IMG/VR virus record: IMGVR_UViG_3300027734_000103
Span: 1 to 51,528 of that record
Strand: one strand, 5' to 3'
DNA: 51,528 nucleotides
Source of the DNA: a virus
Taxonomy: Duplodnaviria > Caudoviricetes
This document shows positions 1,230 through 45,200 of this stretch, in pieces; positions within the stretch are counted from its first letter, which is position 1; every line of letters begins with the position of its first letter. The notes under the pieces are model-generated. The model was not told where the DNA came from. It ran no database searches and saw only the letters and a program-made list of their open reading frames with translations. The translations under genes were made by a program, and so were the position numbers.

Positions 1230-1369
1230 TTTATTTCCTCTTCTAAATTGTTTGAATCAATCTTATCTAAAAATCTTTCAACCACTTTCGCTACGTTATT
1301 CGGTATGTCGGTAACGTAATGGAACGTGCCGTCTTCTAGTCTTACTTTTATACCCCACCATTCAATCAT
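1226..1369 (-). CDS. hypothetical protein (47 aa, MIEWWGIKVRLEDG...), not in ORF track
   Basis: Hand translation; GAGGTG RBS; fills the gap with overlapping start/stop. Confidence 0.65.
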   Translation of the reverse strand: MIEWWGIKVRLEDGTFHYVTDIPNNVAKVVERFLDKIDSNNLEEEIK

Positions 1370-2737: not shown

Positions 2738-3766
2738 TTATCTCCAATTAAAAGTTTCAAATCGAGGTTTACCAAAACTCGGTCTTGGCGCATCTTTATC
2801 AACGGTGGATGAGTGCTTACCTAACTCGCCCTCAATGAACGTGCTAGGTTCTACATCACGTCCACCATCAAAGCCCTCATCGCCATGACCGCTACCGTTA
2901 CCATCCTCTTCGCCATCTTCTTCGCCCTCTTCTTCGCCTTGCTCATTGCTTGGCTTGTCGCTAGGCTTGTTGCCACCCTCACCCTCCTCGTCACCCTCTT
3001 CGCCACCCTCCTCGTCACCTTGCTTGTCGCTAGGCTTGTCACTGGGTTTGTCGCTAGGGTTAGTAGGCTTGTCACTAGGATTGCCATCGTCTTGCTCTTC
3101 TTGCTCATCTTGCTTGCGTTGCTTGTCTTGCTCCTTGATACGGTTGTACAACTCGACTGCAATGTCAGCGATGCGCTGAGTATTCTTTGCAAGACGTGCA
3201 GACTGCAAAGCCCAGTGCAAATGAACCGCATACGGTGAATCGTCAACGATGCTAGGCACATTGATGTTGTAACCGTTTAAACGTCTACCCTCAACTGCGA
3301 GTAGGAAAGGAATATTTTTCTTATCCTTACCACTCACGTACCCATCACGATTGAGAATCGAGTTAAGCAAATTCTCAAAGAGCGCACGACTGTTTGGCGC
3401 ACGTCCTGAGTCGATGACTAACTGCTCGATGCGTGGGTCTTCAAGACCGTTCACGAGGTTGTTAACAAACTTGACCTGTGTGTCACGCACAAAGTCCCAA
3501 GGCTCGTTGTCGGTATACCAAGCATGACCCAACTCATGCAGTGAGTACCCGATTAGATTGTTGAAAACATCGTTGGGGATGGTCTTGGTCTCATCGATGG
3601 ATGGGAAAATAAACTTCGCATCGATGCGATTCTTAGAACGTTTGAAATTAATTCCGGCAGTAGTACCGTTCCAAAATACTTCTAGTTTATTGAAACGGTC
3701 ACCGCTTGAATTAAGCACACGCTCAAGGGTTGTGGCAACGCCACGTTTAACATTGATACCTAACAT
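2738..3766 (-). CDS. CobT N-terminal-like protein with HExxH zincin motif and acidic low-complexity tail
   Basis: LHELGH...NGLEDPRIE; D/E/G-rich tail with NPSDKP repeats; lies between the AAA+ and vWA genes. Confidence 0.8.
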   Translation of the reverse strand: MLGINVKRGVATTLERVLNSSGDRFNKLEVFWNGTTAGINFKRSKNRIDAKFIFPSIDETKTIPNDVFNNLIGYSLHELGHAWYTDNEPWDFVRDTQVKFVNNLVNGLEDPRIEQLVIDSGRAPNSRALFENLLNSILNRDGYVSGKDKKNIPFLLAVEGRRLNGYNINVPSIVDDSPYAVHLHWALQSARLAKNTQRIADIAVELYNRIKEQDKQRKQDEQEEQDDGNPSDKPTNPSDKPSDKPSDKQGDEEGGEEGDEEGEGGNKPSDKPSNEQGEEEGEEDGEEDGNGSGHGDEGFDGGRDVEPSTFIEGELGKHSSTVDKDAPRPSFGKPRFETFNWR

Positions 3767-3774
3767 AACACCTC

Positions 3775-5262
3775 CTATTTGGATAAGTAAGATTGCAGTT
3801 TGTGCGTGTCGATGACTGCACTAAAGATGCCTCGCAACTCTGCCTCACAATCACTAGGAAACTTATTAATGATTGCGCTATCGAATGCGATTGCTACTGG
3901 GATGCCTTTCTTAATCGAACGTGCCCACGCTAATAACTGGCGTAGCGATGGAGGCTGAGTAAGAAGACCGGCTCTTGCTTTCTCACGAGCAGTGTTAGCA
4001 AACTTCACTAACAGGTTAGATGCATCGTGTGGTATGCCAGTACGAGAGCAGAGTAATGCAACCTCTTCCTTGTGTGGCAGATAGTTAAACTGCAACGTGT
4101 AACTGAACCTGTCAATGAACGCACTGTTCTGTTGACGAACACCTTGGAAGTTACCCGACTCATCGCCATGACCGTTCGAGTTATCAGCGCAGAAAAATAC
4201 TACATGCGATGCAACCGGAATACGTAAGCCAGTATCACTGATTGTGATAGCACGATGTGGTGACTTCTCTAACACTGGATGCAACGAGGCAAGTGACTGC
4301 GCTCTAGCAAAGCCCAACTCATCGAGCAAGACGATAGCACCGCACTGTTGAATTGCCTTGGAGATAATCCCCTCGACAAACACACACTGGGCAACACCTT
4401 TATCATCTGTTCTGATTTTGTCAGCACCGATGAAGTCGGCACGTTCGATAGCCTCATCGAATGAAACCTTAAACAACCTACGCCCAAGACGTGATGCAAC
4501 TTGTGTGACAAACTCTGTCTTGCCTGTACCACGTTCACCGGCAAGCCACACGTTGTCCGGTAGTGAATCATCGAGAGCGCATAAAGTTTGATGGAGATTC
4601 TTTGCATCGAAAATGTAATCATCCACACGTGCCGGAGCAAGAGGGTCATTCCACACATCGATAAAGTTATCACCAAAAGCAATCGTGTTGCCCTCGTGCT
4701 CGTACTCCAGTACAACATTCACAAACACATCTTTAATCTGCTTGCGTTCAAACACCGGCAGAGCGTTCGCAACAGTGGTCAACTCTTCGACAGGCGTAGA
4801 TTGCCGGAACGACTCAAACAACTTCGTTACCTGTGCACGAATCTCTACGCTCACCTTGGAGTAGTCAACGCCTTGGACAACTTTCAACTCATTGTTTAAA
4901 CGAGTAGATAAGTCTTCAAACTTCCGAGCGTTAATTGCCTCTTTCTTAAGACTCTCATCGAGCAAGCGATTAGCAACATCACGAACACGCTCAACGCTAT
5001 CGGTTGCCTTGACAATCTCAGCCTGAGCATTCACGATACTCTGCTTAATGTCATCCGGTATGCGAACCTCACTGCTTGCGTTGGTGACTGCATTTGCCTT
5101 GGTGTTGCATGCATCTTCCAAGGTAATGTAGCCACCGGCTACGAGACCATCCACGAGCGTGATTGCGTTGCTCTTCTTTGGCTCAACGGCAAGACCGTTG
5201 GCAAGTAGGATGGTGTTTAGTACTGCATGGGGTAACTTCGATATTTCTAATTTGATATTCAT
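3775..5262 (-). CDS. MoxR/CobS-like AAA+ ATPase
   Basis: Walker A GERGTGKT, Walker B VLLDE, sensor ADN, arginine-finger region NSAFIDRF; N-terminal coiled coil. Confidence 0.9.
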   Translation of the reverse strand: MNIKLEISKLPHAVLNTILLANGLAVEPKKSNAITLVDGLVAGGYITLEDACNTKANAVTNASSEVRIPDDIKQSIVNAQAEIVKATDSVERVRDVANRLLDESLKKEAINARKFEDLSTRLNNELKVVQGVDYSKVSVEIRAQVTKLFESFRQSTPVEELTTVANALPVFERKQIKDVFVNVVLEYEHEGNTIAFGDNFIDVWNDPLAPARVDDYIFDAKNLHQTLCALDDSLPDNVWLAGERGTGKTEFVTQVASRLGRRLFKVSFDEAIERADFIGADKIRTDDKGVAQCVFVEGIISKAIQQCGAIVLLDELGFARAQSLASLHPVLEKSPHRAITISDTGLRIPVASHVVFFCADNSNGHGDESGNFQGVRQQNSAFIDRFSYTLQFNYLPHKEEVALLCSRTGIPHDASNLLVKFANTAREKARAGLLTQPPSLRQLLAWARSIKKGIPVAIAFDSAIINKFPSDCEAELRGIFSAVIDTHKLQSYLSK

Positions 5263-5279
5263 TTGGTAGCCTCCAAAAA

Positions 5280-5873
5280 TTAAGAAAGAATAAAACTGGA
5301 ATTGTCATTCGGGCAGATAGGCAGATTAGGAACTTCGTTACCGTTCGCATCTGTCGTATAAGCCCACTTGCGTGTTAAGTGAATCAAGAATCCACACGAT
5401 GGGCACGTGGCTCTCAGGTTGCGAGTGCCTTGTACCTTTCGGTCAATGCCAAGGTTGAGAGGAGCGTGTGGGTACTCACCAAGTGATTCAATGAGTGCAC
5501 TAAATTCTTGCTGAAAACGAACGCCAACCTTGGTGTGTGTCGGCTTACCCTCAAGGTGTAATTTGCGTACACATTTAGGAAACCTACCACGATGACCATC
5601 ACCATCGGTAGCACTGTGCGCCAACTCATGCACGAGCACCCCAAAGACTTCGTGTGGGTCTGCAATTACCGGTGAAACAAAAATCTCATGCGTGTTGTCA
5701 CTGGATGACTTGGCAGAGTGCCACTCACCCACCGCACGATTAGCAGACCTTGCGTTGCGTGATGGATTACCACACGACACACGAATGTTGTCAGGCAGTG
5801 GGTAACCACTGGCATCGAACACCGGTCTCAATTCGTCTACTGCTTGATTAAGCCAATCTTCTCTTGTACTCAT
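5280..5873 (-). CDS. SprT-like zinc metalloprotease with C-terminal Zn ribbon
   Basis: VLVHELAH...GHRGRF; CPSC and CP motifs near the C-terminus. Confidence 0.8.
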   Translation of the reverse strand: MSTREDWLNQAVDELRPVFDASGYPLPDNIRVSCGNPSRNARSANRAVGEWHSAKSSSDNTHEIFVSPVIADPHEVFGVLVHELAHSATDGDGHRGRFPKCVRKLHLEGKPTHTKVGVRFQQEFSALIESLGEYPHAPLNLGIDRKVQGTRNLRATCPSCGFLIHLTRKWAYTTDANGNEVPNLPICPNDNSSFILS

Positions 5874-6049
5874 TTAAAAACTCCTTTTAAAATTTCACGT
5901 CCAATACAATCACCGGCATGACGTGTTCCATCCGCATGCACGAATGTTTCACCGCAACCGCCAGTCCAGTCCAGTACACCAACAACAATGAGCGCAGTTA
6001 ATAGCACCACACTTACAACAGTAATAGCAACTTCTAGTAATCGTTTCAT
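5870..6049 (-). CDS. small membrane protein (59 aa, MKRLLEVAITVVSVVLL...), not in ORF track
   Basis: Hand translation; AGGAGG RBS; ATGA overlaps both sides; N-terminal hydrophobic helix. Confidence 0.7.
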   Translation of the reverse strand: MKRLLEVAITVVSVVLLTALIVVGVLDWTGGCGETFVHADGTRHAGDCIGREILKGVFK

Positions 6050-6234
6050 GATGCCTCCTTAGTTTGATGAATGAGACCACGCTCGATTAACTCGTGAGCA
6101 GTACGTCCGAACCAACCTTGCAAACTCCAAGCGAGACCGGTATCAACGAGGTGTTGCCACGCCTCTAAAATTTGTTCTTCAGAGTCGGCATCAATGAAAC
6201 CCTCTGCAATTCCTACTGCGGTATAGTTGTTCAT
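6046..6234 (-). CDS. hypothetical phage protein, first gene of the early operon
   Basis: GGAGG RBS; WQHLVDTGLAWSLQGWFGRTA motif seen in small phage proteins. Confidence 0.75.
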   Translation of the reverse strand: MNNYTAVGIAEGFIDADSEEQILEAWQHLVDTGLAWSLQGWFGRTAHELIERGLIHQTKEAS

Positions 6235-6315
6235 AAAACCTCCAATTAAGTGATGCGATATTGCATCCTCTAGAGCACTGGTATGCAGTGCCCTATGAGA
6301 TTCAATCTCGTATGA

Positions 6316-6352
6316 GTGCCAATTATTTTTCTACGCTCTGCAATCGCACGTA
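6316..6352 (-). repeat. pseudoknot motif copy 3: TACG-TGCGA-TTGC-AGAG-CGTA-GAAAAATAATTG-GCAC
   Basis: Same spacing and conserved linkers as copies 1 and 2, different paired segments. Confidence 0.7.
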
Positions 6353-6354
6353 TA

Positions 6355-6392
6355 ACCGCATTTATTTATCGATGCTCTCGGTTCGCACATCG
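6355..6392 (-). repeat. pseudoknot motif copy 2: CGATG-TGCGA-ACCG-AGAG-CATCG-ATAAATAAATG-CGGT
   Basis: Direct repeat of 6588-6625 with compensatory stem changes. Confidence 0.8.
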
Positions 6393-6587
6393 GAAAGAAC
6401 ACGTATCGCTACGGACTGTGTCAACTCGTCACGATTAGTCGGTCTCGTGAGTCATAGTTCTCGTCCTCGCATCTCGTTCGGTTGCCTGTTCCTAATCCAA
6501 GGGGCAGAGCCTACTAGCCTTTGACGTAGAGTTTTAAGTCCTCATATTGACTGCCCTCGTTTTAAGTCTGACTGGCATCATCTGACT

Positions 6588-6625
6588 ACCGCATTTATTT
6601 ATCCACACTCTCGGCTCGCATGTGT
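6588..6625 (-). repeat. pseudoknot motif copy 1: CACA-TGCGA-GCCG-AGAG-TGTG-GATAAATAAATG-CGGT
   Basis: Direct repeat of 6355-6392 with compensatory stem changes. Confidence 0.8.
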
Positions 6626-6812
6626 CGGTGGTTTCTCACCGCTTTTAAAACAGACTAGAACGCTTTGTCTTGGTAAGTAACTGGTCTCTTACGAGGTGTT
6701 ACCGTTTCGAATATATTGAACCCATGTACTAGCGGTGTTTCAACGTTTCCCGACAAAATCTGATAAAGCCCTTTTACTGGTTTCGATATGTGCTATCACC
6801 GAAACAGACTCA

Positions 6813-6843
6813 ATACTAGCACAGATGTTTAAACACTCGTCAA
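6813..6843 (-). promoter_or_regulatory. candidate sigma70 promoter of the early operon
   Basis: TTGACG, 19-nt spacer containing TGTTTAAACA, TG-n-TAGTAT; AT-rich UP-like tract upstream. The spacer is long, hence moderate confidence. Confidence 0.55.
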
Positions 6844-7216
6844 ATATATTTAAAAATAAATTATTTTGGCTTTATATGAATTGACTGGTTCTTGAATGAA
6901 ATCAATGATTTATGAGTGTGCAAAAAAGATACACGATACGGCTGAGAAAGTGCTTGGTGCTTAAAAAATAGGCAATTATTTGATGTAGTGAATGCTACAT
7001 TGTAGCGAACGATACATGAAAATAGGATAGCGATTGAATGATGTTACGTGGTGTATTTGCGTTAGCCGGTTAGCGCAAAAATGATGCTCGTTTAAACGCA
7101 TCGAAGAGGGGATGACAACGAAGTGAAACAGACTCATTGGCGTTAAGGTAATGTAGGGATAGGAACACTAGGAGTGAGAGTGTAGTGGGTAGTAAACGAA
7201 CACACCACGAACGTGC

Positions 7217-7245
7217 TTGCAAGTAGATGTTTAAACGCTCACAAT
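7217..7245 (+). promoter_or_regulatory. candidate sigma70 promoter upstream of terS
   Basis: TTGCAA-17 nt (contains GTTTAAAC)-CACAAT. Confidence 0.5.
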
Positions 7246-7286
7246 GTGTAGAAATAATTTAAGGGTAGTGGAAAGGATAAAAGAAG

Positions 7287-7931
7287 ATGAACGATGATAA
7301 AAAGATTGATAGTGCTACTGGATTAAGCGAGTGCCTTACGAGAGCGAACGAGGCACTCACGAAAGAGGTGGGAGAGCATAACGAAGTGATACGGTCTGCG
7401 GTTGATGCTATAGACGTAAAGACAAAGAGAAATGGTTTACCTCATGGAGTGCATAAAGAAGAACTACTCACAAAGTCAGGTAAAGAAAAGAGAATCACCG
7501 GAAAGATGCAAGCGTTTGCAAGTAATGTCGTAAAGGGTATGAGTCCCAACGATGCGTATCGTACTGCCTACGACTGTTCTAACATGGCTGAGGCGAGTAT
7601 TTGTAGTGAGGCGAACCGACTATTAAAAGACCCAAGGATAACTAACCTCTTACAGTCGTTTTGGAATAGCCTAAAAGAAAATGTCATAGCAGACCAGTCA
7701 GCGACTCGAAGACACATCATGAACGAACTCTATAAGCATGCGAACAATGACAAGGCACAACTGTCGAACAGACTCAAATCACTCGAACTAATGGGACGAG
7801 CGATTGGCATGTTTACAGATAAATTAGAAAGCAAGATAGAGGAAGTGAATGTCGATTCATTGAAGAAAGAACTGGAGTCATCACTTGCATTACTCGACTC
7901 ACATAATCGAAGTCAGTCGAAGACGCATTGA
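7287..7931 (+). CDS. terS: terminase small subunit
   Basis: HTH pattern QAFA..V.KGM...DAYRTAY...EANRLLKDPRI; C-terminal LKSLELMGRAIGMFTDK; upstream of terL. Confidence 0.8.
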   Translation: MNDDKKIDSATGLSECLTRANEALTKEVGEHNEVIRSAVDAIDVKTKRNGLPHGVHKEELLTKSGKEKRITGKMQAFASNVVKGMSPNDAYRTAYDCSNMAEASICSEANRLLKDPRITNLLQSFWNSLKENVIADQSATRRHIMNELYKHANNDKAQLSNRLKSLELMGRAIGMFTDKLESKIEEVNVDSLKKELESSLALLDSHNRSQSKTH

Positions 7932-8079
7932 CGTTGTTTAAACGCCTTGATGCGATGCGATGTGGCCTAGCGATGACCCACCACTCCCCCACCCGCCCCT
8001 ATGGCGCATGCCCCCCGCCCACGCCTATACGCTCTATTTTCCACATTATCCCACTATTCCCTACTGACTGCGAACGTTC

Positions 8080-8095
8080 TGTTCCACGTGAAACA
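8080..8095. promoter_or_regulatory. parS-like site TGTTCCACGTGAAACA
   Basis: Exact 16/16 match to the bacterial chromosomal parS consensus TGTTNCACGTGAAACA, in intergenic DNA. Confidence 0.75.
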
Positions 8096-8123
8096 TGGGG
8101 GTAGGGGGTGTTATTTTTTCCGA

Positions 8124-8152
8124 TAGACAATGTTTAAACGTTCGTATAGAAT
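8124..8152 (+). promoter_or_regulatory. candidate sigma70 promoter for the terL/virion operon
   Basis: TAGACA-17 nt (contains GTTTAAAC)-TAGAAT. Confidence 0.6.
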
Positions 8153-8198
8153 ACCCCTAGTAACGTTTCTGGTTTGTTCGTAGGGGGGTATATATATT

Positions 8199-8357
8199 TT
8201 GACAAAAGATGAACTGTATCTAGAGTTAGATAAGTTGATTAAGACTGACATGAATCAGTTGTTGGACGTGATGAATTATGTCAAACGAAGAGTCATGGAA
8301 GAAGAGGCACGTAAGAAGACAAACAATTTGTTAAATCGTTTAAGGGGGCGTAAATGA
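8199..8357 (+). CDS. hypothetical protein (52 aa, TTG start), not in ORF track
   Basis: Hand translation LTKDELYLEL...LRGRK; AGGGGG upstream; ATGA overlap with the next gene. Confidence 0.5.
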   Translation: MTKDELYLELDKLIKTDMNQLLDVMNYVKRRVMEEEARKKTNNLLNRLRGRK

Positions 8358-8593
8358 AAAGGTTAAAGGAAGAGTATCCAGATGTCATGACGATGGACGG
8401 TTATGACGATGCGATTATAGGTGTCGTTGAGAGGATTGGTTTAGAGGTAGTTTGTTATGACTTAGATAAAGTTATAGAGATATTAATGAAACAAGGCATG
8501 GACGAGCAGGATGCTTGGGATTGGTATCAGTTCAATATGGTTGGTTCGTGGGTAGGAGAGAAGACTCCAGTGTTCTTACAGAGGTTCGTATGA
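8354..8593 (+). CDS. conserved hypothetical phage protein
   Basis: DGYDDAIIGV...YD..K.IE.LM...DA.DW..FN..GSW.GE.TPVF motif common in aquatic phages. Confidence 0.8.
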   Translation: MKRLKEEYPDVMTMDGYDDAIIGVVERIGLEVVCYDLDKVIEILMKQGMDEQDAWDWYQFNMVGSWVGEKTPVFLQRFV

Positions 8594-8721
8594 ATCTGAG
8601 ATATGTACAGGTACTCCAAGAGTGTTCTGAATTGTCACTCGAAGAAATGAAAGATTTAGTGATGGCGTTAAATAAACTCATAGAGGAAGAAAATGACAGA
8701 AAAACAGAAACTTGTATATGA
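8590..8721 (+). CDS. hypothetical protein (43 aa)
   Basis: GAGG RBS and ATGA overlap; start revised from 8515. Confidence 0.55.
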   Translation: MNLRYVQVLQECSELSLEEMKDLVMALNKLIEEENDRKTETCI

Positions 8722-8923
8722 CTTCATCCAGATGTTCTTAAAACTCAAGGGGTTTGCTCCTTCGTACTCCGAGATTGCTCAAGGTCTAGGAATGACCTCT
8801 AAGTCAAATATTCATCGGCATGTCCACACTCTTCGTGAGAAGGGTTTACTTCAGATAAGACCTCATATGGTTCGTTCCATGAAGGTGATAGATAACTCAG
8901 TGAAGCACGTTGTGAATCTTTAA
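8693..8923 (+). CDS. LexA-type N-terminal winged-HTH DNA-binding protein (no peptidase domain)
   Basis: MTEKQKLVYDFI.....KGFAPSYSEIAQGLG..SKS..HRHV..L.EKGLL matches the LexA DNA-binding domain pattern. Confidence 0.85.
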   Translation: MTEKQKLVYDFIQMFLKLKGFAPSYSEIAQGLGMTSKSNIHRHVHTLREKGLLQIRPHMVRSMKVIDNSVKHVVNL

Positions 8924-10428
8924 TGACTCTATTAACTCAGAAAGAGGTTAGTGATTACAGGAAGTTGTTAGATATTCTTCCTGCCAATCATAAAGATATA
9001 CCAAAGATACACGCTATCTTTGCTGAGGATAAGAAGGAACGCTGTCGTAATAACTTCATGCCGTTTGTCAAGGACATGTGGTCAGCCTTTATTGCTGGTA
9101 AACACCACAAAGACATGGCGGAAGCATTTGAAAGAGTGGCTGAAGGTTCGCTTAAACGGTTAATTATCAATATGCCGCCTAGGCACACCAAGTCTGAGTT
9201 TGCCTCTTTTCTGTTTCCCGCTTGGTACCTCGGTAAGTTTCCTGAAAAAAAAATAATTCAGACCGCCCACACCGCAGAACTAGCAGTGGGCTTTGGTCGT
9301 AAAGTGAGGAATCTGGTTGCCACCAGCGATTATCAAGCCATATTTCCCACCAAACTGTCTAGCGACAGTAAAGCAGCCGGACGATGGAACACCAACAAAG
9401 GCGGTGATTATTTTGCGATTGGCGTTGGAGGAGCAGTTACCGGTAAGGGTGCGGACGTTCTCATTATTGATGACCCACACTCCGAGCAAGAAGCCATGCA
9501 AGGCACGGCTAATGTCTATGATAGGGTTTTTGAATGGTATAACTCTGGCCCACGACAGCGACTCCAACCGGGCGGTGCCATCATTATTGTGATGACAAGG
9601 TGGTCTAAAAAGGACTTAACGGGACAAATTGTTAAAAGTGCATCTAAAAGAGAAGGGGACGACTGGGAGGTGATTGAGTTCCCTGCTCTCATGCCTAGTG
9701 GTAAACCCTTATGGCCTGAGTTCTGGTCACAAGAAGAATTAGAAGCCATTAAGGCTGAACTGCCGGTTGGTAAATGGGAAGCCCAGTATCAACAGAATCC
9801 CACCTCAGAAGAGGGCGCTATCATTAAAAGAGAAATGTGGCAGCGCTGGGAAGAAGACCGCATACCAGACTGTGACTACATTATCCAGTCATGGGATACG
9901 GCTTTTGAAAAAAACAACAGGGCTGACTACAGTGCCTGTACCACATGGGGCATCTTCTACCAACCTAATAACAAGGGTAATCCGGTAGCCAATATCATTC
10001 TATTAGATGCTATTAAAGAACGGTTAGAGTTCCCAGAATTAAAGACTAAGGCGATGGAGCAGTGGAAAGAATGGGAGCCGGATACCCTGATTGTAGAAAA
10101 AAAGGCGGCAGGTGCTCCCTTAATTTATGAATTAAGAAGAATGGGAATTCCTATTTCTGAATATACACCAAGCAAAGGAAATGATAAGATAGCCCGTGTA
10201 AACGCTATATCTGATTTATTTGCCTCTGGTTTGGTATGGTGTCCAGAAACTCGTTGGGCTGATGAAGTCATGGAAGAGTGTGCGTCATTCCCAAATGGCG
10301 ACCACGATGACCTTGTTGACTCAACCAGTCAGGCTTTATTACGGTTCCGGCAAGGAGGTTTCATTCGGCTGCACAGCGATGAAGAAGATGAGCCTACGGT
10401 GTTTAAACGCAAAGTAACGTACTACTAA
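8923..10428 (+). CDS. terL: terminase large subunit
   Basis: INMPPRHTKS (Walker A), LIIDDPH (Walker B), SWDTAF and HDDLVDS nuclease motifs. Confidence 0.95.
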   Translation: MTLLTQKEVSDYRKLLDILPANHKDIPKIHAIFAEDKKERCRNNFMPFVKDMWSAFIAGKHHKDMAEAFERVAEGSLKRLIINMPPRHTKSEFASFLFPAWYLGKFPEKKIIQTAHTAELAVGFGRKVRNLVATSDYQAIFPTKLSSDSKAAGRWNTNKGGDYFAIGVGGAVTGKGADVLIIDDPHSEQEAMQGTANVYDRVFEWYNSGPRQRLQPGGAIIIVMTRWSKKDLTGQIVKSASKREGDDWEVIEFPALMPSGKPLWPEFWSQEELEAIKAELPVGKWEAQYQQNPTSEEGAIIKREMWQRWEEDRIPDCDYIIQSWDTAFEKNNRADYSACTTWGIFYQPNNKGNPVANIILLDAIKERLEFPELKTKAMEQWKEWEPDTLIVEKKAAGAPLIYELRRMGIPISEYTPSKGNDKIARVNAISDLFASGLVWCPETRWADEVMEECASFPNGDHDDLVDSTSQALLRFRQGGFIRLHSDEEDEPTVFKRKVTYY

Positions 10429-31726: not shown

Positions 31727-32014
31727 ATGGACTTTTTAGAACTATTTAATAAGGTAGCAAGAGTGGTTAGGCCAGCACACCAAAGTTATATTGATGTCAC
31801 TGACATGAACCAAAATTTACAGGAGTCTGGTTTAGATAGCATGGATGGCTTAATGATGGGCATATATTTTGCTGACATCTACGGCATCCCAGAAGAAATA
31901 GCCAAAGAAATGCACTTTACAACCGTGCAAGAATGCTATGACTTTATTCAAGAACACAAGACAAAAGACCCATCAGGCACGGCAGAAGAAGCCATTAAAG
32001 GGGTTGATTGGTGA
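31727..32014 (+). CDS. acyl carrier protein
   Basis: Small, acidic; L.E.GLDSMD phosphopantetheine motif; .YGIP...TV.E..DFI helix pattern; AGGAG RBS. Confidence 0.85.
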   Translation: MDFLELFNKVARVVRPAHQSYIDVTDMNQNLQESGLDSMDGLMMGIYFADIYGIPEEIAKEMHFTTVQECYDFIQEHKTKDPSGTAEEAIKGVDW

Positions 32015-33129
32015 TATATTTAACCGAAAGCAGAACCCTGTGTACGGAAAATACAGAACTAATTGATGACATATCATACCCCCAAAAGGTACACTGGTTT
32101 CCTGAGTCTTACGCTAAAAAAGATACCGGCATGGCATACGTGCCACATAAGGTAGCGGATAAAGTACTAGATGGAGAAATATTAAAGACTCTAAGGGAAA
32201 ACCCTATAAAGACTGCTTTTATATTAGCATCCGGTAATTCGCATTTTGCTGGCATTGAACCCAAGTTATGGGACAAAAACCGCTTCACTTACACGTATAA
32301 ATTTAGACCATTGGCGTTAACTCAGGTCTTTGCTGGACGAGTGGCAAGTTCATGCGGAGCCTCAGACTACGTAACTACCGATGCCTCAGCCTGTGCGTCT
32401 AGTTTAAAGGTGATGATGGATGTCCAGATTCTTATCAAGATGTACGGGTTTAAACGGGTCATTGTTCTGGCTGTAGAAGATACCATCAATACATCCGTAT
32501 TAAATTTCTTTGGAGAATCCGGAGCCTGTTTAACACAAAAACTAGAAGATACTGGGGTAATCCCTAGTGCTTTTGATGAAACAAACTACGGATTTTATGT
32601 TGGTCAAGGCGCTGCATTTGCTGTTTTTGAGACCGAAGAAAGTATGAAATTAACTGGCTTTAAACCTAAAGCACAACTGTTAGGAGCGTATACCGCTGCT
32701 GAAGAAAGCACAAATGTAATTGGTCAACGAGAAGATGGACAAGGATTCTCTAGAGCAATTGAAGGAGCGCTCTATGTATCTCAAATACAGTCCTATCAAG
32801 TACGAACAGTTAAAACACACGGAACTGGAACTAAATCAAATAATTTAGCAGAAAAGCAAGCATTAACTAGCAATTTAAAGGATTTTGTGGCAACATCGTT
32901 TAAACAGAGAATTGGGCATACAATGGGTGCAAGTGGCTTGCTAGAAACCCTATTATTGTTGGATAATGTTAAAAACGGTTTTGTGCCACAAATTGCCAAC
33001 CGTACAGACGAAGATAATGTATTTTTAAGCAAACCTGCACCTTCAGAGAAAGGTGGGGTTATTTTAAGTCTTGCGGCTGGGATGGGCAATGTATATTCCG
33101 CTGCAATTTTTAGGGATACTCAATGTTAG
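32011..33129 (+). CDS. beta-ketoacyl-ACP synthase (FabB/FabF-like, Cys-His-His)
   Basis: ASACASSL (Cys), KTHGTGT..N (His), KQRIGHTMGASG (Lys/His), GFYVGQGA, SLAAGMGN; GTGA overlap with the ACP stop. Confidence 0.9.
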   Translation: MIYLTESRTLCTENTELIDDISYPQKVHWFPESYAKKDTGMAYVPHKVADKVLDGEILKTLRENPIKTAFILASGNSHFAGIEPKLWDKNRFTYTYKFRPLALTQVFAGRVASSCGASDYVTTDASACASSLKVMMDVQILIKMYGFKRVIVLAVEDTINTSVLNFFGESGACLTQKLEDTGVIPSAFDETNYGFYVGQGAAFAVFETEESMKLTGFKPKAQLLGAYTAAEESTNVIGQREDGQGFSRAIEGALYVSQIQSYQVRTVKTHGTGTKSNNLAEKQALTSNLKDFVATSFKQRIGHTMGASGLLETLLLLDNVKNGFVPQIANRTDEDNVFLSKPAPSEKGGVILSLAAGMGNVYSAAIFRDTQC

Positions 33130-39290: not shown

Positions 39291-42200
39291 ATGGCAAGAG
39301 ATTTTAGTGCCGAATTGTTTGGCTCACCCACCAGTAGTCAAGGCACAGACTTTAGTAAAGAACTTTTTGGTTCCAAACCTAAAGAAAGAACTTATGGCGA
39401 AGCCTTTACTGACGTAGGGGCTGGTGTTGTCTCAGGCATTGGTTCACTTGTACAACTACCCGGACAACTCTATGGTTTAGCAACTGGAGATTTTGAAGAC
39501 ACAGGACTACTCGGTCTTGGTAAGTCAATTAGAAAATCTGGCGAAGAAATGAAGTCAGATGTATTAAAACAAAGAGAAGAACAACGTGCACAAAAGATTG
39601 CCGAGGCAGAGCAAAAAGGCACATTTGAAGCATTTAAAACTGCTTTTGGTGAAACAGTTAAAGACCCAGCATTAGTTACAAGTTTTCTTGCAGAACAAGT
39701 GCCACAGTTATTGGTACCTTTTGGTGCCGGTAAAGCCGGTTCTGCTATTGTTGCTGGTAGACAGGCTCTGGCTGGTGCCACTGCCAAAGAAGCCGCATTG
39801 GCTGGCGGTAAGGCTGGTGTTACAACTGCCGTTGGTGCTGGTGGAGTACAACAAGGTGCTGATATTGGCGCTCAGTCCTATGAAGACATCTACAAGTATT
39901 TAGTTAAAGATGGTATGCCTCCAGACCAAGCAAAGAGCGAGGCATTAAATCTTGCCCGTGCCTCTGGAGCCGGTGCTTTTGTTATTTCTTTATTAGCACA
40001 ACGATTACCCGGAGCCAAAACGCTTGAAGAGTCGTTTGTTGGCGTACCCGGTGTTGGTGGTAAGGTTGCTCGAATTGGTAAGGGTATTGCCGGTGAGACA
40101 GGTAGTGAGATTTTTGAAGAGGGTGGCGGTAAGATTGGGCAGAATATTGCTATGCGTCAGGTTAATCCTGAGCAAGCGCTCATGGAAGGCGTTGGTGCAA
40201 CGGCTGGTCTAGCCGCTGTAGGCGGTATCGGCATGGGTGGTCTTGGTGGTGCATTGCAAAAAGGGCTACAACCAACAACAATTACACCTCCGGAAACAAA
40301 AACAACCACTGACAAATTACTTAGCCAATCTCAATTACTATTACCGGCTCCTGATGAGCAGATTATTAATGATAAGCAGTATGACCCATTAAGAAACCCA
40401 CTAGGTAATTTCTTAGAGGGAGAACTCACTCCTGAGCAGATTGCTTACATCAACAAAGACCGCTCTGATAACAACAAGCCTCGTTTAAACTCTTACTCAT
40501 TAGAAGACTATGTAGATGCTTTACGCCATAGTTCTGATACCGATATTGCTAAACAAGGTGCTTTAGATAACATTCTCACGTTCAAGACCGGCTATGATGG
40601 CATGGTTGAAACAACGGTTGACCAAGTATTAAATGCCGCTTTAGATAAAAACATTGAAACAGGTACTCAAGGATTTAAAGACTTTTTAACTAGAGCAACC
40701 GGCACAGACAACCTTGAAGTCATGAGTCCAGTGCAACTGTACTCTGCGTATGAAGCCTTGGTTTCTCCGAACGTTCCTAGGTCTGACACGTTACAAATCT
40801 TGCCCGAAGGTACAAACGCAACTCGGTTTACGCAAAAGCAATACGACCAAGCGCTTAACAACCTACAGGCTGAGTACAACTTTTTAGATACAGATTCTCT
40901 TGGAAGAACTAGTGTCATTAATGATATTAAAGACACCACTGGGTTAAAGGATGACACAGATGCAAAGGCTCTCTTACGCCATGCAATCAACAGGGGTGAC
41001 TTAGAAGAAAGAATCTCTACCACTAAGGTGGATGGCAAAGATGTTAACGTGGTTAACATTGCTTTTGCTGGGAAATCCGAGCCGCTGCCTAGCGGCCTAG
41101 ACATTCGTTTCCAAACGTTTAAACAGGGTTCTGTTCCTGAAAACTATGAAATCAAGAACGGTTCAGTTGTTTTAGATAGAGTTTCTACAGAAGAAGAGGC
41201 TAAGGTTGCTCTTGAAAAGCAGACCGCTATTGCTGAGAAGAAAGCCTTAGACATAGAGAAAGACATAGAGAAGATTCAATCAGGCGTTGATAAATTGGAA
41301 TACTCGTTAGATGAGAAGAAGACTCTTGGTCACTTTGGTACACCAGCGTACAACAGAATGGCAACAGATATTGGCGCTCAGATACGTCAAGCCAAGGATA
41401 GGATTAACGCTAAACTCAACGATATTCGTAACCTACGCAATCCTTTTACAATTGTTCCGGTTGGAGAAAAGCCAGTTACCGCCAAGAAGTATGTGTTCTA
41501 TGACAACGATACACCGCTTGCATCGTTTGCTAACAAAGACTTGGCTGAACAGTATGGCTTGATGAGGCAGAATGCCAAGGGCGAGTATGCAGTTACAGAT
41601 GAAACTCTCCAACAGATTATTGATTCCGCTCCCACAACCAAGGGCACACTACCTAAACGCTATGCATCCTACGCTAAGAAAGAACTAGCAAGACGTAAGG
41701 GTGAAGCGCCACAGGGTATTGAGGTACGTAAGAGTGTGTACCAGCCCAAGGTTGAAGAAGACTTTGATAAGATTCGTCAGAATCTATTGCCAGCCTTAAA
41801 GAGGTTTGGTTTGGAGAAAGTTGGACTACGTATTGTAAAAAGTATTGCAGATGGCAAAGCAGACGGTTCTTATGTACAGGAACTCATTAAGATTGCTTAT
41901 AACGCCAAGAATCCAATGGGAACTCTACGCCATGAAGTGATTCATGCGTTAAAAGAATTGGGTGCGTTTACTCAACAAGAATGGAAAATCCTTGAGAACA
42001 AGGCTAAGTCTGAGTGGATAGATAAATACATTAAGAAGGTTGGAACTTACAAAGCATATCAAGATGCGTATAAACAGTCCAACGGTGACCTAAAAGGTTT
42101 TGATGAGTACATTGCTGAAGAAGCAATTGCTGAAGCATTTAGAGATTTTGCTAATACTAAACCACCCGTAGGATTGATTGGTAACCTGTTCTTCCGTTTA

Positions 42201-45200
42201 AACAAGATGTTTGAAGCCCTTGGTAACACGTTTAAACGACTAGGCTATGCTACAGCAGGTGACATATTCCAGAAAGTTGAACGTGGTGAAGCCAAACCAA
42301 CGAGAGTGGCAACATCTACACAGGAAAAGTTATCTCGTCAAAAACAACCAATTAGCGATGAAGAATACTTTGCTCAGGAAACTGCTAAACCTAAAGCCAA
42401 GAAAGTAATTTTTGAAGTTGCACCAGACCCCAACAATAAAGATTTAACTGAAAGATGGAACTCACTCTCATCCGAAGAAAAACTGGTTATTAGTAAGAAG
42501 GTTGCTGACTACGTTGTCAAGGATGCACTAGAGACTTTTGATAGTGAGGGTAAGATTTCTGACCAGATTGGTAGTTATGGCGAGTTTACTAATCCATCGC
42601 TATCCCTGTTTGTAGATAGTGGTGATTCAATTGAGATTGCTAAATATCTTGGATATGCGTTATCTCAAGACAGTATGGTTGTCATTTCTCCAAGAGATAA
42701 AAAAGGCTTTGATAAAACAGGCGCAGTTGTTATTGACGTTGGCAACAAAAACGAAAAAGAAATTGATGACATTTATCAAACGCTACGTGCCATTAACTTA
42801 AATGGTGAAAACCCAGTTGGTGGTCAATCCACCATCAATGGTAAGATGGTTGTGTTGAATTATTCAAACAGTACAACACAAGATTTAGCGGTAGCGATTG
42901 ACGATGCGTTAAAACAAAAATACAATGTAGCAACAAATGAAGTTTATACTGCATTCCCTGAGAAGAAAGATTACGATTATGGCGATAAGACAAATGACCC
43001 AAGAGGAATCGGACGAGTTGTTCGGGAACGGAGTCGTGCTATTCGGAGTGAAGCCGCAGCCCTCATCGAATCAGAACTCAAGCAAGTCGGAAAAGGAAAG
43101 ACAGAATCCGCAAGTTCCGGCATCAACATCCTCGACAAACGAGTAGACAATCCTAATTTAAAGAAGCCTACTGTCAATGATGTAGGAAAATACTTTGATG
43201 GTCTTTACGACAAAAAACGTGACTTTTCTGATGTAGAAGATTTTAATCGTGCAGTAAAGATTGCTACAGAAGAAATTGCATACCAGTTAGAAAATGAACG
43301 CTCCGGTTTAGATTGGTATGACGAGGACATATCTAAAGCGTTTAAACTTACTGCAAAGATAATCCCTAAACTGAAGCAGAGTAATAGCAGATTCTTGTTT
43401 AGCGTCATGGCTGGCATTATGTCGCCACAAACTAACGCCCGTGATAACTGGGTTATCGCTGCTCAGAACTTCCAGAATTATATAAAGACAGGAACTATAT
43501 CAGGCGTTAATCCCCAAACTGGTGGGTTATGGCAAGGTGGAACGCAGTCTATTAACAAGCGGACGCAATTAAACCTATTGAATAATATGGTTCAAGATAT
43601 GGGGGAAAAAGGAGCGATTGCTTGGCTAGTCTCCAACCGTACTGTTAAAGAAATTAATGATTTCCGTATGAAGTATGGAAACATTAAGAGTGGTATTGGC
43701 GGTAAGATGACTGACATTGTGCCAGCACTGTATACATTTGGTCCTAAAGTTGGCCCATTTGTATCCAATTTAAACGGCATCTATGATGTTACCGTTGACA
43801 AGTGGATGACAAGAACTTTTAATCGTTACTTTGGAACAATGCTTGGTAAAGATAAAAATATTATTGATGCCCCAACAGAGAAACAAAGAACTGCTATTAA
43901 AAATTTAATTAATGAGGTGGCAAAAGATGCAAACATTAAACCGTACCAAGCCCAATCTTTACTCTGGTTCTTCGAACAAAGACTCTTTAGAGAACTCGGA
44001 ACTCCAAGCCCCTCCTACGGATTCGGGGACGGAGCAAGGAAATTTTCTGAACAAACTTCCAAAGGAGGAGATAGAGGCGGTGTCGAGGGCGATGGAAAGA
44101 ATAAGCCAGCAACTAAAACTGGATTAAAAAAAGGCGAACTTTTACAAATACGTGCGCCTGAGACTGAAGAATTTCAAGAATGGATTGGAGATTCAGTTGC
44201 TATTGATAAAAATGGCGACCCAATTGTTTTCTATCACGGCACCAATCAAGACCTTAAAGAGTTTAGACCTAGCAAAGAGGGCGTTCTAGGAAAAGGTATT
44301 TACATTACGCCTGACGCAGAGTATGCAAGCAGTTACGCAGAAGAAAGTGCGTTTGGTGATAAGCGTGGCACTGGCGGTAATGTTATTCCATTATTTGTAA
44401 GAGTCACTTATCCGCTTATTGTTAAATATAAACAAGGTTATGACCCTGCAATCCAAGCATTAGAAGCGCTTGGTGTAGATACCGATAAGGCTTATCAGAT
44501 TGTAGAGAAGTCCCAAGAAGAATTTGGGAACATGACTAATCAAATCATGTCTCGTGCTAAGAAGTTAGGTTACGATGCAATATTTTATAACAATGAGGAT
44601 GGCTCAATTCGTGAAGCAGTTGTATTTGAACCTAACCAAGTTAAGTCAGCCTTTAATCAAAAGCCGACTGCATCTAAAGATATACGTTATCAAATCCGTG
44701 CTCCAGAGACTAAAGAGTTTAAACAATGGTTTGGTGACAGCAAGATAGTTAACGAAGACGGAACTCCAAAAGTAATGTATCACGGAACTGCTAGAGACAT
44801 TTCTGAGTTTAGACCTAAACAGGCTAATGCTATATTTTTAACTGAATTCCCAAAATTTGCTCAAAGTTTTTCTGACTCTAGTGAAGATTATTTGATTCGT
44901 GAATTTATAGAAAATGCTACACCAGAACAAACATCTAAAATTATTACAAAAGCAATTAAACAAGGCTTAAAAGAAAAAGATATTACTTCTTCTGCTGTAA
45001 AAAATATACGTCAAATGACTTTAAAACAGGCATCTCTTACCTCTGGCATTGGTTATCTTATACGTGGTTATGTAAAAGAAAGTTTGCCAACTGGACAAAA
45101 TATTTTACCTGTATTTGTTAAAGCAGAAAATCCATTTGATTATGAAAATCCACGCCATATAAATAGAATGTCTATGATATTTGGCGAAGATGAAACAATG

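Follow-up and report, generated by a model that had tools for sequence, protein, structure and literature searches.

The described systems closest to the RNA reported here are the following. Pseudo-ToxI of phage PhiTE is a phage non-coding RNA decoy whose repeat number can change and matters (PMC3475682), and like the type III antitoxins ToxI, CptI and TenpI it consists of small tandem H-type pseudoknots with an A-rich strand along stem 1. STAXI (RF01728) is an orphan pseudoknot in UUCG-capped repeats, found two or three times in a row near mobile-element genes of Enterobacterales, as a single family whose function is not known (PMC2864571). PreQ1-I is about 35 nt long, with a firm P1, a weak P2, short L1 and L2 and an A-rich L3, and its conserved bases cluster where the helices join (PMC7641330). 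Finally, H-type pseudoknots stacked coaxially in a 5' leader impede scanning by RNase E, independently of their sequence and increasingly with stem length, 8 coaxial bp being weak and 15 potent (PMC9943677).

The leader described here lies on the minus strand of a tailed phage genome, analysed as one window of 51,528 nt (84% complete according to CheckV). It is a mosaic of abutting modules, about 560 nt long, and the promoter-like site ahead of it is conserved. At the point where infection is predicted to begin, at least three compact pseudoknot families, not catalogued so far and with unusually clean covariation, are packed into a shuffled array; the carriers are an uncultured group of lake phages. 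The tandem arrangement and the A-rich strand recall the type III antitoxins, and a phage RNA with changeable copy number recalls pseudo-ToxI. Unlike the type III antitoxins, however, the unit termed type A below has neither conserved single-stranded tails nor a cleavage site between repeats; the repeats are not near-identical, L1 and L2 differ, and several unrelated families stand in one RNA. The leader shares with STAXI the repetition of an orphan pseudoknot, but it is found in phages and is a mosaic, and type A has no UUCG loops, no RF01728 match and another sequence. Type A also matches the above description of preQ1-I in size, stems, loops and junction, whereas it has no Rfam match and different junction bases and was found only in phages, and the leader has neither an expression platform nor a metabolic gene downstream. 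Like the RNase E obstacles the leader would place coaxial H-type pseudoknots in a 5' leader, but its stems are short and its loops fixed. By analogy, the leader may work like a phage RNA decoy, yet it belongs to none of the families with which it was compared.

A compact pseudoknot with covariation in both stems

An earlier note on this DNA had proposed three minus-strand copies of an unrecognised H-type pseudoknot. Its consensus matches the minus strand three times without mismatch (6592-6620, 6359-6387 and 6320-6348), against 0.02 matches expected by chance, and none of 100 shuffles reached three; the P1 and P2 pairings of the three units are as given there. The complete type A units, each identified by consensus, covariation and a model match, occupy 6588-6624 (copy 1; 53.2 bits with the model built from these units), 6354-6392 (copy 2) and 6316-6352 (copy 3, with the start codon 81 nt further on), all on the minus strand, and copies 2 and 3 are separated by 1 nt. 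A degenerate fourth unit near 6460, which the note had offered only as a possibility, did not hold up. These letters have no P1 and no model match, model R1 finding only three units in the window, and they belong to the flank of other modules (module W/H, see below).

The covariation of both stems, with near-fixed linkers, extends well past the three copies. Among 44 distinct units from related uncultured phages, both stems are paired in 307 of 308 cells, two-sided changes occur at all 7 pairs (94 cells), none of 500 shuffles matches this pairing and slid registers are 23-42% paired; here the structure was read from the same sequences, and the statistics ignore kinship. In several of the loose-scan patterns that contributed units, one or two P1 pairs, the innermost, were already specified. 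We also picked 42 distinct units by their loop letters alone, inside leaders defined by other modules, and in these the four P1 and three P2 pairs are each standard in 42 of 42 units. Outside leaders the same pairs are standard in 14-22 of 38 cases, of which three are true units in loci that have no markers.

The unit consists of two short stems, invariant junction loops and an A-rich minor-groove strand. P1 comprises 4 bp and, where it meets the junction, an invariant U-G, and P2 comprises three firm pairs plus a loose fourth that is paired in 23 of 42 units; these 4/3 bp lengths are constant in 44 of 44 units. L1 is GCGA or GAGA plus one variable base and L2 is AGA. L3 is usually 12 nt long and ends in AARUG (lengths of 7, 12, 14 and 20-21 nt were seen), and only its 3' end is fixed, the 5' half being 2-9 nt or a hairpin. 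Eleven of 40 alignment columns are invariant, all of them in loops or at the junction U-G, while the flanks of the units vary. Since the P2 pairs take two to five standard pair types across units and the loop columns are invariant, sequence-specific contacts to P2 would not explain the invariant L1 G-A and L2 G.

Seven of the 42 units, against 35 of type A, belong to a subtype that we call type B. Here five junction positions (L1-2, L2-3 and L3-7/8/11) change jointly, in what may be a single event. We infer that the subtypes differ at the L2-3/L3-11 pair, A-U against U-A, which would lengthen P2 over an A-G pair and a bulged G.

Two observations favour the minus-strand RNA as the functional strand. 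The invariant U-G, together with a G-U at the edge of P2, would turn into mismatches on the opposite strand. Moreover, a generic pseudoknot descriptor, written after the motif had been seen and hence partly circular, finds four knots on the minus strand of the leader and none on the plus strand. With the same circularity, this count exceeds those of all 200 shuffles (mean 0.25) and is at the top of 182 genome windows. When the leader is folded by plain MFE nothing stands out (z -0.89), which is to be expected from a method that ignores pseudoknots.

The fold is also unrecognised, as had been claimed. Rfam gives no match at gathering thresholds in the whole window, so that no ribozyme or riboswitch model is matched either, no match at E<=10 in 6200-6900, and no match for the motif in 20 homologous loci. 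The three units are thus a real, selected RNA fold that is uncatalogued in Rfam.

Homologous leaders in uncultured phages

The exact pattern was found in eight viral loci, six of them homologous leaders and two unrelated matches. A scan that did not rely on the pseudoknot, but on another motif close by, recovered 25 leader loci, and further ones came from looser scans. When metagenomes were scanned, the first match had both stems complete in 36 of 37 loci, and 19 of these 36 have flanks not previously met. Fixing P1 and leaving L3 free gave 117 matches in 104 loci, among which four new true units (L282, L315, L328 and L348) come from the same phage group; the other new matches looked like chance.

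Outside these phages the searches were negative. None of 12 bacterial matches of the GTDB pattern search has both stems, and model R1 has no match in 151 genomes of one bacterial family (a weak test, with 44 candidates scored per genome). Neither set contains a host sequence that the units might mimic. In cultured phages there is no blastn match to the leader, no R1 match near terL of HTVC027P, DSL-LC04 and 023Pt_psg01, and no comparable array in seven stretches scanned with the descriptor, where the highest count is 5 in 561 nt (L269), mostly dissimilar matches inside genes. The literature searched, which included few subscription papers, describes neither the motif nor an array of mixed pseudoknots in the leader of a phage. 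One study predicts 8495 candidate viral structured RNAs from IMG/VR (PMC10690425; Fremin et al. 2023); our motif and contig terms are absent from its supplementary files 3-6, the part of the material covered, and a piece of the leader could be among its candidates.

The leader is a mosaic of modules

Between copies 1 and 2 lie two pseudoknots of other families, which the earlier note had missed. Type C (6552-6587, minus strand) adjoins copy 1 and has two 4-bp stems, of which S1 is paired in 20 of 20 and S2 in 19 of 20 cells over five distinct variants, a count that omits one row, the window unit, which is out of register. With type B it has in common an L2 of AGU and an L3-terminal AG. Type D (6529-6552, minus strand) is a mini-pseudoknot of 4 bp, 5 nt, 3 bp, 0 and 5 nt, a ToxI-like geometry. 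In 11 distinct variants its S1 is paired in 44 of 44 and its S2 in 31 of 33 cells with two-sided changes in both stems, and it is also picked up by the generic descriptor.

The remaining modules, all on the minus strand, are hairpins and multi-stem elements. A 5'-terminal hairpin (6780-6805) stands at the predicted transcript start, and a short hairpin present in most relatives (6626-6641) precedes the first pseudoknot. Module Y (6473-6519; 21 distinct variants) has an AGUA/GAA internal loop below a variable stem. The first two pairs above the loop are paired in 21 of 21 variants, the second being GC in 14 and CG in 7. We take this loop to be of the bulged-G type, like the sarcin-ricin motif, and module Y could be a decoy for ribosome-targeting nucleases. 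Module W/H (6394-6462) is variable and seems to have several stems, among them a hairpin with a GCGA tetraloop at 6402-6413. Modules Y and W had been considered as pseudoknots as well, an idea dropped once more variants were compared.

Across 29 leaders the order of the modules is kept while their content varies, with zero to four A or B units. Module Y is the most constant element, but its frequency is partly by choice, as Y was among the markers that defined this set. The different families are retained in fixed slots, and A and B replace each other in one slot. A, C and D adjoin with a linker of 0 nt and A-A with 1 nt, and in many leaders such stacks stand on both sides of Y/W. The parts also occur separately: Y/W is present with no pseudoknot in L150 and L155, and type A with no Y in L129, L032 and L223. 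Further modules or pseudoknot variants stand beside A or B in divergent leaders (L032, L204, L172, L223, L232, L234, L245, L064 and L315). An insert of about 135 nt at the 5' end of the leader (6645-6780, minus strand) is shared only with the closest relatives, L001 and L221, and lies under the RNA contigs of runs X2 and X4.

Promoter, expression and downstream genes

On one side of the leader is the plus-strand gene for the terminase small subunit. On the other is a minus-strand operon in which small ORFs are accompanied by genes for a SprT-like protein, a MoxR-type ATPase and a vWA protein, a layout that suggests an early operon. The terminase is closest to those of HTVC023P-type pelagiphages, 023Pt_psg01 and DSL-LC04 (54-59%). 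A predicted early promoter (6813-6843, minus strand) comprises a -35-like hexamer (6838-6843), the palindrome GTTTAAAC (6827-6834) and an extended -10 (6813-6821). It was not picked up by a sigma-70 scan, and its GTTTAAA...TGCTA arrangement also precedes homologous leaders. The transcript is predicted to start near 6805.

Parts of the region are covered in four metatranscriptome runs, and DNA in the RNA libraries is possible for all of this cover. Contigs from three freshwater- or lake-labelled studies cover 6524-6795, 6519-6663 and 6643-6792. Their ends at 6795 and 6792 have no loose end and lie 10-13 nt inside the predicted start, whereas runs of unrecorded library type go on to 6819 and 6834. 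Being contigs alone, which carry neither strand nor level, they give a weak hint of transcription from the predicted promoter. The fourth run, X1, may represent DNA, as one of its contigs also spans the upstream intergenic region. Runs X2-X4 have no cover outside the leader, which we do not take as evidence of abundance. Contig stops at 6519-6524 were considered as processing sites and rejected, runs X5-X8 breaking at 6524-6528 too. The conserved promoter-like site at 6813-6821 and the contig ends agree with the earlier placing of the fold at the start of the first, early transcript, which itself is predicted.

The first early ORF with its Shine-Dalgarno sequence (6239-6243) occupies 6046-6243 on the minus strand and encodes 62 aa (DUF7417 / phrog_3908), but the gene in this position varies among relatives: 36 first downstream ORFs, two of them probably miscalled, fall into 15 BLAST clusters. 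The leader is thus independent of the downstream gene. From the last unit found to the first start codon the distance is 49-333 nt in relatives, as measured with a unit finder that misses type B and some type A units and was used for downstream genes and distances only.

A putative processing site between the leader and the first gene

Between the last unit and the ribosome site lies module Z (6252-6309, minus strand), a long irregular hairpin predicted to be an RNase III-like processing site (the identical element in L001 has an MFE of -24.9 kcal/mol). In 12 relatives module Z is found again in front of other early genes (second copies in L018, L035, L064, L077, L132, L142, L146, L148, L153, L154, L221 and L231). 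Covariation links its 5' segment to the loop of a 3' hairpin that could form instead, a two-state fold, and module Z is possibly an RNase III site or a new ribozyme.

In two relatives the slot of module Z is occupied by hammerheads. L155 has two type II hammerheads (3273-3332 and 3579-3638, plus strand; 39.8 and 37.4 bits, above gathering) directly before the ribosome sites of two early genes. L223 has one of type III (1264-1320, minus strand; 36.4 bits, E 3.7e-4, below gathering) after two type A units and before the ribosome site. Because hammerheads fill this slot in relatives, we read it as a putative processing site at which cleavage would free the leader from the mRNA.

Possible functions of the array

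The explanation that we put first, tentatively, is that the leader acts as a free early decoy or sponge RNA whose units titrate a host factor. The host RNA polymerase would start near 6805 at infection, each 35-40-nt unit would fold while being made, and hairpin Z (a hammerhead in some relatives) would free a nuclease-resistant RNA of about 500 nt. The invariant loop bases of each family would form a binding surface or pocket, through which each unit would bind and titrate its factor; a defence protein or its signal molecule is the most likely candidate. Types A, B and C would be specificity variants, and copy number would set the dose. We chose this reading because the RNA is tied to the promoter and not to a gene, seems separable from the mRNA and varies in copy number, and because stem sequence is free while stem length and junction bases are fixed and several families stand side by side. 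It is a point in its favour that in our searches (GTDB pattern, 151 genomes) the units were found only in phages. The ligand- or protein-binding module suggested in the earlier note therefore survives as the best reading, as one element of a mixed array, in which binding itself is presumed from the pattern of conservation.

Several points count against the decoy. The bacterial searches described above revealed no host sequence for the units to mimic, and ToxN is rare (1 of 401 genomes) in the one candidate host order examined, itself a guess. The invariant loop bases may be required for folding and nothing else. The units adjoin each other on either side of the Y/W core, an arrangement that fits protection of the ends equally well, and the swapping of A and B in one slot fits a generic job.

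The strongest rival, possible though on balance unlikely, is that the units are nuclease barriers, as the earlier note had also considered. Head-to-tail pseudoknots would stack coaxially and block 3'-5' exonucleases as well as RNase E that scans from the 5' end, so that the early mRNA is stabilised or a functional core RNA (Y/W) is capped. In addition to the RNase E precedent, the abutting A-C-D and A-A units would form stacks of about 23 and 15 bp if stacked coaxially, and in many leaders stacks stand on either side of Y/W. However, longer stems would block better, yet P1 and P2 are kept short at 4/3 bp throughout, and the array retains several different families next to each other, each with fixed loops. 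Moreover, in L223 a hammerhead parts the units from the mRNA, and the leaders described above that have Y/W and no pseudoknot, or type A and no Y, speak against it too. If the units were nuclease barriers only, they would still be natural, portable RNA stabilisers.

A more specific variant of binding, distinctly unlikely in our estimate, is that the leader is a natural array of RNA aptamers, each family binding a different host immune signal or alarmone, for example a cyclic nucleotide. If this were true, the first transcript, acting as the RNA equivalent of a protein sponge, would disarm signalling before any phage protein is made, and types A, B and C would differ in their pockets; such a small-molecule sponge made of RNA would be without precedent in the literature searched.

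We consider it quite improbable that the leader is a cis-acting transcription element, in which the nascent RNA would bind host RNA polymerase or Nus/Rho and render early transcription processive. HK022 put is an RNA element of this kind. The leader is always promoter-proximal and ahead of the long early operon, whatever the first gene. On the other hand, its variable copy number and position and the swapping of families fit a fixed polymerase-docking RNA poorly, and no strong terminators are conspicuous in 4000-10000 (5 found, 5.0 expected).

That the units mimic type III antitoxins (pseudo-ToxI/CptI/TenpI) and neutralise ToxN-family nucleases seems very improbable. Type A has the core of a type III antitoxin, an H-type pseudoknot with an A-rich minor-groove loop, as the covariation of both stems indicates. 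Its L3 end resembles the A-minor strand of CptI (PMC4627078) and TenpI repeats can be non-identical (PMC13682666). However, ToxN recognises the single-stranded tails and does not bind a core without them (PMC8860590), whereas type A flanks are variable and the units adjoin, so that type A fails as a mimic on its tails. L1 is 1 nt in CptI and TenpI (PMC13682666) against 4-5 nt in type A. What also speaks for the suggestion is the neighbouring 24-nt type D, which has the 4/4-5/3/0/4-5 geometry of the ToxI in L267 and shares its stem and loop lengths, not its sequence. L267 (2049-2150; G541) is a toxIN locus whose 35-nt repeat is present 2.9 times. It comes from the candidate host order, itself a guess, but within that order ToxN was found in only 1 of 401 genomes. 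No toxN/cptN/tenpN-type family occurs among 30 ORFs (PHROGs) or 28 ORFs (Pfam) of the window. In a cognate system the repeats are followed by a terminator and the toxin gene, whereas the first ORF here encodes DUF7417; a mimic would not require this arrangement.

To tandem riboswitch aptamers controlling the early operon in cis we give hardly any weight. The preQ1-I-like geometry and the conserved junction would suit them, but copy number lies anywhere between 0 and 4, and the gene downstream is freely exchanged, its start codon being 49-333 nt away. The units do not overlap the ribosome site or a terminator, and there is no bacterial copy in the GTDB pattern matches or the 151 genomes and no Rfam match. 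The riboswitch-like aptamer that had been suggested is thus unlikely, having neither a fixed downstream gene nor an expression platform.

Least of all do we credit a new class of small self-cleaving ribozymes that would cut the leader into pieces: the core is invariant and hammerheads occur in the same gene neighbourhood, but up to four copies stand in a row, and contigs of two studies (6524-6795 and 6519-6663) span copy 1, C and D intact, weak evidence as DNA carry-over is possible.

To our knowledge, RNA-based phage counter-defence comprises few cases, each a single mimic. If the decoy reading is true, an array of mixed families with variable copy number would give such counter-defence a new format. 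With 24-40 nt, the units are easily made, probed and crystallised, and the proposal is testable even without a host.

Other features of the window

The palindrome GTTTAAAC is by far the top 8-mer of the window, with 34 occurrences against about 3.4 expected under a third-order model. It is found in genes and promoters alike (for example at 243, 6827, 7090, 7229, 13056 and 49242) and precedes most homologous leaders, while GATATC is absent from the window. GTTTAAAC is possibly a binding or methylation site, and 41 genomes of Burkholderiales, one candidate host order, show no enrichment of it.

Just before terL, a gene at 8693-8923 (plus strand) encodes a stand-alone LexA DNA-binding domain of 76 aa; a LexA-like protein search for the host returned no taxa. 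A beta-ketoacyl synthase-like gene (32008-33129, plus strand) lies among the virion genes. Finally, a protein of 2919 aa (39291-48050, plus strand) contains three ART-PolyVal ADP-ribosyltransferase domains and LPD38.
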